Origin: Pseudomonadota bacterium
Lineage (GTDB): Bacteria > Bdellovibrionota > FAC87 > UBA2466
Reading direction: 5' to 3'
Assembly (NCBI GenBank): GCA_043718025.1
Contig: JAYSWN010000083.1
Span: 1-33,477, forward strand
Length of the DNA stretch: 33,477 bases
Part shown: positions 5,167 to 8,969 of the stretch, piece after piece
Numbering within the stretch: position 1 is the stretch's first letter
Layout: each line of letters begins with the position of its first letter
Position numbers and translations under genes: made by a program
Notes under the pieces: generated by a model
What the model was told of the DNA's origin: nothing
Databases searched by the model: none
Seen by the model: the letters and a program-made list of their open reading frames with translations, nothing else

Positions 5167-5252
5167 GCCAGATAGATTAAAAAAAACACGGCGGGCGGCC
5201 GTTCCCATTGCCGAAAATCGTCACCTAGGCAGTGACGAAGAGTTTTGATATA
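5167..5252 (+). repeat. 86-bp direct repeat, copy 1 (upstream of the helicase)
   Basis: GCCAGATAGATTAAAAAAAACACGGCGGGCGGCCGTTCCCATTGCCGAAAATCGTCACCTAGGCAGTGACGAAGAGTTTTGATATA; identical to 8884-8969 except 5239 A versus 8956 C. Confidence 0.97.
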
Positions 5253-5298
5253 CAACGGCGCGCCGTGGGTTCTCCCACTGTTTTTCCAATCAATACCC

Positions 5299-8200
5299 AT
5301 GTTTGTTCGTTTTTTAAATCTGTTGCCGCTGCTCCCCCTGGTGATGTCGATCGCCGAAGGCGCCTCTCCGAGTTGTGCGCAAAGACTGTTGCACGCCACG
5401 CATGGGGTGGATGCCGATCAAGCCGCTCGAACCCTTAGCGAGAGCCCCCTTTTTGCAAGACTGTCTGCGGACCAGCGGACCTTTATGGAGGAGCTTTTTC
5501 TCCCCGTAGTGGGCGAGCGCGGCAACCATTTCCCGATGCGAGTGGGAAAGGGCTGGCTGGAGTGGAAAGGCTACCCGCATTCTCCCCTGAAATACCGGGT
5601 GGAGTTTTCTGCCGATGTGGACGAACCGCAGCTCGATTTAACTGACCCGGCTTGCCGCCGTCTTATCTTACCCCAAGCTGCGACCACCGGCGATTGGACT
5701 GGAATCCTCAAACGTTTTTTTCTCGGCCATCCGCTCCATCCCTTTATGGTCGACCCGAACAATCGGGTGGAGCGGGAAGAGCTGGGAGAGCCCAGTCTGC
5801 TGCTACGCGATGTGCAGGTAGAGGCGGCCGAAGTGGGTCGCGAATATTTGAAGCGCTTCCATGATGGCGATATGACCCACCAGCGTTTTCTTTACGTCGC
5901 CCCCACCGGCACCGGAAAGTCAGAAATCTACCTCAACCTGCTTTCCACTCGCCTCACGCAGATTGGCGATAATGGCCTCATCATCGTTTCGTCCGATCGC
6001 GCCAATGTCGTACGCGATCGAATGGATGAGGCCAAGACGCTCCAGCAGAACGGCCATGATTTTGACATTGTTCACTGGGGCGGAAGCGGTGAACTTAACG
6101 ACGATGTCCATTCGGTTGAGGAGTTACTGGCGCGCGTCGCCCTTGCCAAGCGGCCGGTGGTATTGATTACCACTTCGGCGTCGCTGCGACTTTCTTACTT
6201 TGAAGCAGATCGCGTCACCCAAAAAGCTCTTCGTAAGAATCTGCGCGGCGTCTTTGTTGACGAAGCCCACCACCTTGGGGGGCTTACCAATAGCGACATT
6301 TTAGCTAAGCTAATCAATAGAAACCGCCTAGCTTCTCTAATCGGCTTCACCGCTACCCCCGTGAGTCGTACCCAATCGATCCAAAATCTGTTCAATGCCC
6401 ACGGTTTTTGGGCCTACGAAGACAACGCCGAAGATTATTTAAAAAATCCAGGAGCCTTCTACAGGGATGTCGCACTGGTCGCGCAACAACTCCGCCGCGC
6501 CTTCATAGCGGGAGATTTAGTGGGGTTCGATAAGGTAAATTATATTCCGCTCAGCAATGCGACTAAGGGAGACCTGTACGTAAAAAGGAAAAAAATGGTC
6601 GAGGGTGGAACGTTTGAAGACGTTAATCGGTTTGTGCTCAATTCAGAGTACTATCCCGAATTGCTGGCCGCTCTAAACCCCATCTTCCTAAGCGGGCGCG
6701 GTATTATGGTGGCAAACGATATTACCGAGGCAGAAGACCTCACGGCCGCCATCAACCTCATCTATCAGAGTCAGAAAAAAAACGTCCGCGCCGAAGTGAT
6801 CACCTCAAAAAATGCACCGGCCAACTCAAAAACCGAAAGGGATATTCTTGCCCGCTTCCGGTCCGGCGAAACTCAAATTTTAGTATCGGTAAATAAACTC
6901 GATGAAGGGATCAATATTCATGACGCAAATTTTTACATCGACTTGAACCTTTCGCCTTCCGCCCGCAGCTTTTTGCAACGTTTGGGTCGTACCACGCGCG
7001 TGTCTCCCGCAAAAACGGAGAGCCATGTCTACCTGTTAGCACCACACAGCCAGGAGACACTTGAAAAAATGCTTCACGAAGTCTTCTTTGCTCCCGGCCA
7101 GCGACGTCCCAAACCAGCTCCCACCGGAACGTCCCACGGCAATCTAGAAGTTGCCATGGAGGACTTCTTAGACGCACTCGAGAGGACCAACCTGGAACGC
7201 TTGGATTTTTGGAAGCCAAGTCGCTACTCGCTTTCCGCGGAAGAACTCACCCTCTTTCAGCAAGAGGTTATTGGAGATGTGGGTGAAACCTTTCCTCGAT
7301 TCGGAAGCAAGACCAACGCGTTTATTGAGACGGTGTTGGCGCCGAAAATTTCTAATCTTGCCGCGCGCACTGCCTTTCTGAAAGAGGTTAAAGATTTACA
7401 CATATGGGATTCTCTGATTTGGAGTGCTCAGTCTGTTCTTGGATCCGCGGATAAGCTTCATCAAGTTTTTATCCTCTTTGCCACCGCCGCCAATTTCGAG
7501 GTTCCCGAACGTATGGTTACGCGGTCCCATTTAGAGCAATGGGGCGTAATACCAAGTAGGTATTCTATCCCTGAATCCGAACTCAAGCTGTTTCAGACCG
7601 AAGTTCTGACGTCTTCGGTGGAGGCTCTTTCTGGGGTTAGGCGCAAAACAAATAAGTTTATCGAAGAGGTATTGGCCCCCAAAATTTCTAATCCAAAGAA
7701 GCGCGCCGATTTTCTAAGAGAAATGAAACAATTAAATTTATCCAACGCCACCATAAGATCGGGGGAAACTCATCTTGGATCGGCCGACAATTTCCATCAC
7801 GTGCTGGTCCGTTTCGCCGAAGCCGCGGGTCACGAAGTGCCCGAACGGGTCAAGCTGTCTGATTTAGAGGCGTGGGGGGTGGTAGCCAGTAAGTATTCTC
7901 TTGCCGACGCCGAAATAAAGTTATTTCAAGCGGAAGTTCTGTTCGATGTGGCGCTTACCTTTCGAAATTATGGAGGTAAGGCCAACGCTTTTGTGCAGAC
8001 CGAATTGGCGCCGAAGATTGCTAACCGCAGCAAACGAGCCGCGTTTCTAAAGTACGCGAAAGACTTAAATATGTCGGAGACCACCATTAGAATGGGAAGC
8101 GACATGCCCGGCCCGGCGGATTGTTTTCACCAAGTTCTGCTCCGCTTCGCCGAAGCCGCAGGTCACGAGGTGCCGAAACGGGTTACCTTGTCTGACCTAG

Positions 8201-8892
8201 AAGAGTGGGGGGTGTTACCCAAAGGTAATTTCACTTCGCAGTCGGAACTAAAGTTGTTTCAAGAGGATGTTCTGGGGGATGTAGCGGAAACCTTTCCTGG
8301 TTTCACCACAAAGACAAACGCTTATGTGCAGACAGTGTTGGCCGCAAAAATTTCCAAGCCCAGTAAGCGAAACGCCTTTCTAAAAAAGGTGCAAGAAATG
8401 GATTTGCCTGATCGTACTATTGCGGAGGGCAATCGAGGCGCAGGCTCGGCGAGAGATTTCCACGGGGTACTGATCCAGTTTGCTGAGGCGGCAGGGCACG
8501 AGGTGCGTAAACGGATCACGCTTTCTCAACTGCGGGCGTGGGAGGTGTTACCCAGTAAATATTCTATTCCTGAAAACGAGCTGAAGCAGTTTCAACTGGA
8601 GGTGCTGGGAGGTTCGGTTGACAATTTCTCTGGATACAGAAGAAAAACCAACGCTTTCACGGAAGAGATTTTGGCCCCGCTCATTTCCAACTCCGGCAAA
8701 CGATCCGCCTTTCTGAGGAAAGTAAAAAACATGCAATTGGTAGACTCCATCATGAGAACCGGAGGCGTTCAGCTTGGGTCGGCAGATAAGTTTCACCAAG
8801 TGCTTATCCTTTTTGCTGAAGCAGCAGAGTTCGAGATTCCAAAACGGGTCAAGCTAAGCCACCTCAGGGCGTGGCGAGTGATCGCCAGATAG
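5299..8892 (+). CDS. SF2 DExH-box helicase (ResIII/Irc3-like) with putative signal peptide and five C-terminal tandem repeats
   Basis: Walker A APTGTGKS, motif II VFVDEAHH, motif III GFTATP, motif V LDEGINI, motif VI QRLGRTTR. ATG at 5299 gives hydrophobic MFVRFLNLLPLLPLVMSIAEG (track start 5245). Confidence 0.9.
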   Translation: MFVRFLNLLPLLPLVMSIAEGASPSCAQRLLHATHGVDADQAARTLSESPLFARLSADQRTFMEELFLPVVGERGNHFPMRVGKGWLEWKGYPHSPLKYRVEFSADVDEPQLDLTDPACRRLILPQAATTGDWTGILKRFFLGHPLHPFMVDPNNRVEREELGEPSLLLRDVQVEAAEVGREYLKRFHDGDMTHQRFLYVAPTGTGKSEIYLNLLSTRLTQIGDNGLIIVSSDRANVVRDRMDEAKTLQQNGHDFDIVHWGGSGELNDDVHSVEELLARVALAKRPVVLITTSASLRLSYFEADRVTQKALRKNLRGVFVDEAHHLGGLTNSDILAKLINRNRLASLIGFTATPVSRTQSIQNLFNAHGFWAYEDNAEDYLKNPGAFYRDVALVAQQLRRAFIAGDLVGFDKVNYIPLSNATKGDLYVKRKKMVEGGTFEDVNRFVLNSEYYPELLAALNPIFLSGRGIMVANDITEAEDLTAAINLIYQSQKKNVRAEVITSKNAPANSKTERDILARFRSGETQILVSVNKLDEGINIHDANFYIDLNLSPSARSFLQRLGRTTRVSPAKTESHVYLLAPHSQETLEKMLHEVFFAPGQRRPKPAPTGTSHGNLEVAMEDFLDALERTNLERLDFWKPSRYSLSAEELTLFQQEVIGDVGETFPRFGSKTNAFIETVLAPKISNLAARTAFLKEVKDLHIWDSLIWSAQSVLGSADKLHQVFILFATAANFEVPERMVTRSHLEQWGVIPSRYSIPESELKLFQTEVLTSSVEALSGVRRKTNKFIEEVLAPKISNPKKRADFLREMKQLNLSNATIRSGETHLGSADNFHHVLVRFAEAAGHEVPERVKLSDLEAWGVVASKYSLADAEIKLFQAEVLFDVALTFRNYGGKANAFVQTELAPKIANRSKRAAFLKYAKDLNMSETTIRMGSDMPGPADCFHQVLLRFAEAAGHEVPKRVTLSDLEEWGVLPKGNFTSQSELKLFQEDVLGDVAETFPGFTTKTNAYVQTVLAAKISKPSKRNAFLKKVQEMDLPDRTIAEGNRGAGSARDFHGVLIQFAEAAGHEVRKRITLSQLRAWEVLPSKYSIPENELKQFQLEVLGGSVDNFSGYRRKTNAFTEEILAPLISNSGKRSAFLRKVKNMQLVDSIMRTGGVQLGSADKFHQVLILFAEAAEFEIPKRVKLSHLRAWRVIAR
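7222..8889 (+). repeat. Five tandem intragenic repeats of 111-112 aa (336/333/333/333/333 bp)
   Basis: Units start at about 7222, 7558, 7891, 8224 and 8557. Consensus YS...ELKLFQ.EVL.......KTNAF...LAPKIS...KR.AFL...K.......I.......GSAD.FH.VL..FAEAAG.EVP.RV.LS.L..WGV. Confidence 0.95.
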
Positions 8893-8969
8893 ATTAAAAA
8901 AAACACGGCGGGCGGCCGTTCCCATTGCCGAAAATCGTCACCTAGGCAGTGACGACGAGTTTTGATATA
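8884..8969 (+). repeat. 86-bp direct repeat, copy 2 (overlaps the helicase stop codon, upstream of the 8981 gene)
   Basis: 85/86 identical to 5167-5252; begins with the last codons GCC AGA TAG of the helicase. Confidence 0.97.

Follow-up and report, generated by a model that had tools for sequence, protein, structure and literature searches.

The repeat pair around the helicase gene

The window analysed here is the whole stretch of 33,477 nucleotides (nt) part of which stands above. It is the entire contig C216 of an assembly of 4.14 Mb in 234 contigs, 92% complete, from a bacterium of the Bdellovibrionota. On its plus strand lies a gene for a superfamily 2 (SF2) helicase enclosed by two direct copies of an 86-bp repeat, and the origin of this repeat pair is the subject of the analysis. 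The locus contains the following features.

3797 to 4976, minus strand: lipoprotein gene, left neighbour, frameshifted near 4843-4849
4977 to 5166, no strand: left intergenic region, with two short helicase-like matches, possible relics, not collinear
5167 to 5252, plus strand: left repeat copy, apparently orphaned, with the final two helicase codons, the stop and spacer sequence from beyond it
5179 to 5202, minus strand: A8 tract and 5-bp hairpin of the left copy, terminator-like in a terminator scan
5218 to 5238, no strand: palindrome of the left copy (7-bp arms, 7-bp spacer), at background frequency
5253 to 5298, plus strand: linker of 46 bp from the left copy to the helicase start, with a terminator-like hairpin (5265-5278) and a T-run
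5299 to 8892, plus strand: SF2 helicase gene, 1197 amino acids from the ATG at 5299, with a signal-peptide-like N-terminus (by inspection) and a family-specific N-terminal domain
7225 to 8889, plus strand: five complete C-terminal tandem units of 333 bp (111 amino acids)
8884 to 8969, plus strand: right repeat copy, made of the helicase end (8884-8892) and 77 of the 88 bases in the spacer that leads to gene 8981
8896 to 8919, minus strand: A8 tract and 5-bp hairpin of the right copy, terminator-like, beginning 3 nt past the helicase stop
8935 to 8955, no strand: palindrome of the right copy, possibly an operator
8963 to 8971, plus strand: extended -10-like element TGnTATAAA, candidate promoter of gene 8981, straddling the right end of the repeat
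8981 to 10057, plus strand: gene 8981, 358 amino acids, with a signal-peptide-like start

The two copies are identical at 85 of 86 bases, the sole mismatch being an A at 5239 and a C at 8956. They lie at an offset of 3717 bp, with 3631 bp between them. Both the distance and the single difference had been noticed in an earlier reading of the letters alone (the sequence-only reading) and are confirmed by coordinates and by BLASTN, whose alignment reaches 95 columns and includes a single gap; a core of 72 bp is identical in both copies. That only one base in 86 differs would imply a recent event. As the earlier reading also foresaw, a crossover between the copies would yield a 3717-bp circle with the 1197-residue reading frame unchanged and leave one copy before gene 8981.

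The search for further copies that the same reading had proposed found the 86-mer twice in the whole assembly (BLASTN), and one of 37 other genomes of the class gave a match, of 25 nt, at chance level. A dispersed small repeat (repetitive extragenic palindrome or miniature inverted-repeat transposable element) is ruled out, since it needs many copies and this repeat, unlike the multicopy repeats of this genome, has two.

Origin of the two copies

The right copy appears to be the native one and the left copy an orphan of the helicase's own 3' end. The helicase takes its last two codons and stop from the right copy, and the stop stands where the protein family naturally ends: in five of five examined full-length proteins with this kind of tail it lies 26 to 30 residues past the same anchor of the complete last unit (window protein 26, P0002 26, P0020 28, P0008 29, P0012 30). 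A sixth protein, P0011, was left out of this count, as it ends mid-unit and is possibly a cut record. P0002, which shares the distance of the window protein, is its closest relative, at 40% identity. Homology of the units rests on the comparison of the window with P0002 (hhalign E 3e-5, probability 46%) and on a joint unit profile, which recovers P0020 (E 1e-8), P0012 (8e-5) and P0008 (0.02); a profile from the window's five units alone recovered neither P0002 nor other homologs, and the units of G005 against those of the window gave an hhalign E of 0.2. Because the stop in the right copy is the natural protein end, the left copy is best read as an orphaned helicase end. No plus-strand gene ends at the left copy. 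Internal unit 2 closes with the same five bases with which the repeat opens.

The spacer part of the repeat points the same way. Across the genome 11 of 967 strands, the present locus among them, have an A-tract with hairpin that starts no more than 15 nt from a stop; divergent spacers hold 8 such structures in 116 kb (0.07 per kb). The structure would therefore fit a gene end about 5 to 20 times better than a divergent promoter region. The sequence-only reading had recorded correctly that the repeat supplies the end of the helicase, and had overlooked that this is probably the enclosed gene's own native 3' end.

On balance we think that the left copy was left behind by duplication, or by re-uptake of DNA, together with a deletion, and that likely no dedicated recombinase was involved. 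Two illegitimate joints would have made the present state. At one, the end of the spacer, inside the TATA-like box, would have been fused to DNA 46 bp before the helicase start, either through a tandem duplication of 5253-8969 or through uptake of a relative's allele anchored by homology on the right side. At the other, an older helicase copy would have been deleted down to its last 9 bases, and either order of the two joints fits. The left copy has the composition that duplication, capture and deletion would leave, namely a natural gene end and its spacer, joined 46 bp before the start. The helicase would now lie behind most of its neighbour's upstream region, which may amount to promoter capture. 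There is precedent for a duplication that puts a gene behind a downstream promoter (PMC5918244, PMC6614815), and homologous recombination is reported to have a threshold of about 30 bp (PMC2884548). The 72 identical bases exceed that threshold, and under duplication or insertion alike the unit is open to passive excision or amplification through general recombination; loss or amplification of the 3717 bp in this way would occur at low frequency. Collapse would delete the helicase and not restore the ancestor, because the first copy retains 9 coding bases.

As to the machinery, dprA and comEC are present in the genome and recA occurs in 35 of 38 genomes of the class. A genome without recA was entertained as the cause of the scars and rejected: recA is missing from the assembly, but contig C56 stops inside the gene next to it, and recA itself thus falls in an assembly gap.

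The left intergenic region holds two short stretches similar to the helicase, 5131-5143 being the same as 5378-5390 (13 of 13) and 5078-5098 matching 7101-7121 (18 of 21). One of 400 random genome segments matches as well. These stretches point to the same history, as does the short deletion that has damaged the neighbouring lipoprotein gene.

Several points weigh against the history proposed above. It needs two events, and a single insertion at a short match spanning the stop codon yields the same letters. The relic matches were found post hoc and are not collinear, and the 18/21 match is more diverged than the repeat. The -10-like box of the left copy is incomplete, matrix scores are at background, and a terminator-like hairpin stands between the left copy and the helicase start. 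Finally, neither the gene order of relatives nor metagenome scans gave an ancestral or empty allele: a DNA search of 41 genomes for the empty site found only short matches to a flanking gene in one genome, protein homologs of gene 8981 (in 2 of 40) and of the lipoprotein (in 8 of 33) had no neighbours in common, no gene order around the locus was found to be shared with relatives, and no relative turned up in either of two metagenome scans.

Insertion with long target duplication, reportedly first described by Nobusato et al. in 2000, would be a one-step origin, the helicase having entered at a short match across the stop. We rate it as the less probable course, though a serious one; it keeps its weight because one event suffices and because such anatomy is common in this genome. 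The class is described by Furuta, Abe and Kobayashi 2010 (PMC2853133), and the locus resembles it in that the repeats are longer than 30 bp and unique, the insert is below 20 kb, no mobility gene is present and the repeat is not a tRNA end. Repeats of the class often span start or stop sites (PMC2853133), and two of the three reading frames of the present repeat reach a stop within four codons. The helicase family is also patchy: homologs with the same N-terminal and helicase domains give a strong match in 10 of 40 relatives and in none of three in the genus, and their gene neighbourhoods differ between genomes, except within one family.

Other repeats in the genome bear on this point. It has 43 same-contig direct repeats, 35 of them with three copies or fewer, and seven other two-copy pairs of at least 80 bp, whose sequences are unrelated to one another and to the present repeat. 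Three of these have clear target-duplication anatomy and bracket a single gene with unique repeats of 87-116 bp; the other four, of 84-364 bp, are of mixed character.

C117, 2966 to 4516: single gene bracketed by unique repeats
C209, 23680 to 24566: single gene bracketed by unique repeats
C24, 1626 to 3252: single gene bracketed by unique repeats
C190, 27776 to 29873: further two-copy repeat
C58, 116 to 1450: further two-copy repeat
C60, 83 to 7186: further two-copy repeat
C24, 1246 to 7889: further two-copy repeat

In the first three the duplicated sequence is the start or the end of a gene next to the bracketed one, which is the usual anatomy of target duplication, and the 498-residue frame enclosed on C24 bears the first codons of the downstream pseudouridine-synthase gene. 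Tests for an empty site at these three loci in five genomes found homologs of one flanking gene each and no flank pair. Since repeat-bracketed genes are common in the genome, no shared site is needed. At the helicase locus, however, the repeat is the enclosed gene's own end, which is not what plain insertion into a resident target predicts; the origin of the repeat points to the inserted gene, although a short match across the stop may account for it. The A-tract with hairpin suits a gene end more than a divergent spacer, and the empty site that would define an insertion was not found in the searches listed above. The G+C content at third codon positions, 0.59 in the helicase core and 0.53 in its tail, is near that of the neighbours (0.55-0.61), which also speaks against an insertion.

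Three further observations on repeats concern the genome at large. Some of the four mixed two-copy repeats surround toxin-antitoxin-like or small regulator genes. Duplicated tRNA ends (tRNA-Val, Pro, Tyr and others) around gene islets on C26, C51, C140, C160 and C179 are ordinary integration scars, and multicopy families of structured repeats of 160-600 bp, some in 162-bp tandem arrays, break the assembly at many contig ends (for example on C49, C163, C200, C230, C35 and C67).

The pair could also be a shared regulatory module of promoter and operator, kept identical by selection or gene conversion and co-regulating two exported proteins. Each copy indeed lies just upstream of a gene with a signal-peptide-like start, and the right flanks (5253-5352 and 8970-9069) are weakly similar over about 100 bp, out of frame. 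This similarity was equalled in 6 of 500 shuffles, by 4 and 6 of 1445 gene starts and by 0 and 3 of 328 starts of signal-peptide genes; it may reflect composition or old homology. The left flanks show no such similarity, 297 of 500 shuffles reaching the same score. A regulatory role leaves unexplained why the left copy includes a stop and coding bases, and it would be expected to preserve short motifs and not 85 bases out of 86; the motif was not found at other genes. We therefore hold this explanation to be very improbable.

Elements inside the repeat and read-derived contigs

The terminator-like A8 tract and hairpin on the minus strand and the palindrome, both described in the sequence-only reading, are present in each copy. 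The palindrome had been put forward as a recombinase core site, and on that basis a recombinase acting in trans would excise a site-specific cassette there. A 7-bp spacer between inverted arms does resemble the cores used by tyrosine recombinases, the excised circle would be complete, and the genome has three tyrosine-recombinase matches, on C1, C66 and C190. Nevertheless, we see very little chance that the locus is such a cassette. An inverted repeat of 7 bp occurs in 82 of 1275 upstream 86-mers of the genome and in 42 of 2000 shuffles, that is, at background frequency, and the palindrome sequence is found in the two repeat copies and nowhere else in the genome. Identity between the copies runs 51 bp to the left and 14 bp to the right of it. 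Contig C216 carries no recombinase gene, as already noted from the letters, and no resolvase was found in the genome, so that attL/attR sites are not indicated: there is no linked recombinase, and the core site recurs neither at other loci nor at homolog cassettes. The genome's other two-copy repeats do not match this one. Flanking repeats were present at none of 14 distinct homolog helicase loci (sets of 8 and 13 with seven shared; two loci are cut by a contig end). Of the earlier view that this was a recent, swappable cassette, the recent event stands and a purpose-built cassette is not supported.

An integron cassette was also considered and rejected. The attC sites of integrons have conserved ends and stand in an array or with an integron integrase. 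Here an Rfam scan gave one chance match, outside the repeat, there are two copies and no array, and folding is weak, the repeat folding no better than its shuffles (z -0.5 to -0.8).

The promoter-like element fared unevenly. An extended -10 motif is enriched upstream of genes in this genome (14 seen against 2.2 expected) and stands whole in the right copy; in the left copy it is incomplete because the repeat ends inside the motif. A promoter consensus scan of the repeat, however, gave 0 sites, and a matrix trained on 133 leaderless-type promoters of this genome scored the repeat's boxes at 3.2-3.3, against 3.8 for the median best of random windows. Other sigma factors were considered from their familiar consensus motifs and set aside: sigma-28-like motifs are not enriched upstream of genes and their spacing misfits the repeat by inspection, as does that of a sigma-54-like motif. 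In the genome as a whole, exact sigma-54-like sites upstream of genes number 16 against 0.7 expected. The genome is also rich in a leaderless-type signal, TAnnnT at 6 nt before the ATG, found at 88 of 1460 starts, about 4x background.

Read-derived contigs were obtained from six runs. Two of these are deep and are possible sources of the assembly, and so do not count as independent samples; the other four are too shallow for junction coverage, and the parts they leave uncovered carry no weight. Contigs from the two deep runs match the window without differences and contain both repeat junctions. They break as the 72-bp core demands, with a left contig to 5196, an inner one covering 5209-8913 and a right one from 8926, and one deep run yields the core itself as a 72-nt piece. 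No joint of an empty site or circle and no variant branch was listed in the six runs, in contigs that cannot phase the 72-bp core. With that limit, the lack of such joints also counts against a recombinase.

These contigs bear on a last alternative, namely that the assembly merged an empty chromosomal site with a helicase carried by another strain or by a 3717-bp circle of its own. The same graph, broken at the 72-bp core, would result if an empty site and a circle were both present, and none of the pieces listed covers a whole copy with both its flanks. We nonetheless consider a merge highly unlikely. Inner and flanking contigs are similar in depth (11.2 against 12.1 and 11.5; 10.8 against 11.5 and 10.8), a weak hint, as depth here is not a measure of copy number. 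The 3717-bp unit has no replication gene, and runs from a second study contain near-identical helicase pieces together with pieces of the flanks. The helicase pieces in two shallow runs of that study show 0-2 differences, and therefore the gene is not confined to one sample; pieces differing by up to 7% are present in runs from other sediments.

The helicase family and its neighbours

The enclosed protein matches the helicase domains ResIII, DEAD and Helicase_C above cut-off. Both SF2 helicase domains are present, Walker A, DEAH and motifs III and VI are intact, and motifs I, II, III and VI are conserved in 10 aligned homologs. Against NCBIfam no cut-off was reached. PADLOC models and solved structures match it through generic helicase stretches only, the best solved relatives being archaeal XPB/Rad25, matched along some 70 residues within the second domain. 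One 111-residue unit is predicted as a six-helix domain (predicted local distance difference test, pLDDT, 93); this model had no Foldseek match to solved structures at E 0.001 (best Z 4.4). Folded from its single sequence, the entire tail gave a poor model (pLDDT 46), and it had no usable match in the atlas.

The family comprises 61 representatives with an E of at most 1e-30, and 135 when the limit is relaxed to 1e-10. Of 80 loci kept from the species collection, 13 have homologs of the same architecture and the remainder are distant helicases. Hosts are mostly Bdellovibrionota, with one Elusimicrobia and one Bradymonadales record. The family has a conserved domain containing GHPLHP, its C-terminal tails vary in length and sequence, and a crude count among the top 95, of which 89 are long, found a hydrophobic stretch at the N-terminus in 65 of those 89. 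A literature search for this SF2 helicase family found no description, the one paper that came up dealing with SecA domains of giant proteins, and the family is apparently undescribed.

Members with a signal-peptide-like start are candidate exported effectors. Export into prey is suggested because the N-terminus is signal-peptide-like and the hosts are likely predatory; delivery of family members into prey, if it occurs, would be a new aspect of predator biology whatever the history of the repeat. The helicase cargo is more interesting than the repeat itself. It is a speculative and unlikely extension that a likely predatory bacterium gains exported-effector genes, gives them new promoters and keeps them expandable through recombinase-free, homology-anchored events, with, at this locus, a helicase under its neighbour's promoter whose copy number varies in the population. 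If true, the locus would be a natural promoter capture, stabilised by deletion, for a prey-directed helicase.

Gene 8981 had no family in Pfam, NCBIfam or PADLOC. Its N-terminal GESH-like motif and weak atlas leads (<0.85) hint at a TraB/GumN- or ChaN-like metal-binding fold, and the start of a gene on C58 (14727-15788) resembles it by eye, tblastn giving no match. The lipoprotein gene is damaged by a short deletion: it is shorter than its homologs at the frameshift, and read-derived contigs have the same letters. Farther along the window, 22510-28791 on the minus strand encodes a surface protein of 2093 amino acids with repeats of about 107 residues and propeller-like repeats at the C-terminus.

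Comparison with known systems

The repeat pair is real, and the locus is probably the scar of a recent duplication made without a recombinase, which is a known kind of event. The case warns against deducing a recombinase from a palindrome that lies between near-identical repeats. It also leads to the SF2 helicases described above, found mostly in Bdellovibrionota, with their signal-peptide-like starts and variable tails. The window protein resembles XPB/Rad25- and ResIII-like SF2 helicases in its intact Walker A, DEAH and motifs III and VI, and differs from them in its signal-peptide-like N-terminus, family-specific N-terminal domain and variable C-terminal tail.

Amplifiable units, in which a gene between direct repeats of at least 20 bp varies in copy number by homologous recombination (PMC5526668, PMC11893328), are similar in layout; there the repeats are mostly insertion sequences around resistance genes, and no amplification was seen here. 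The effector arrays of the type VI secretion system of Vibrio cholerae (PMC5361080; overview PMC2884548) are alike in the gain or replacement, without a recombinase, of a gene for an exported protein and in an orphan 3' end. Homology-facilitated illegitimate recombination is the process compared, for which the presence of dprA and comEC is relevant. In those arrays the anchor is upstream and the orphans lie downstream with immunity genes (PMC5361080), whereas the single orphan here is on the upstream side, with neither an immunity gene nor an array in evidence.

Units inserted with long target duplication (PMC2853133) share with this locus one gene unit below 20 kb, unique near-identical direct repeats above 30 bp, the lack of a mobility gene, a repeat that spans a stop and the capacity to amplify through the repeats. 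The cargo here is, however, not a restriction-modification system, and the repeated end belongs to the enclosed gene, with its orphan upstream. A further parallel is promoter capture by tandem duplication, as at rnk-citG of Escherichia coli (PMC5918244) and in ble-GFP activation (PMC6614815), where a gene is likewise placed behind the upstream region of the following gene and short matches are found at the joints. At the present locus 9 coding bases of the first copy remain and the expression change is putative. The polarity of the pair, with the orphaned end of the enclosed gene lying upstream of it, would be a legible record, in a wild genome, of a deletion that accompanied duplication or re-uptake.

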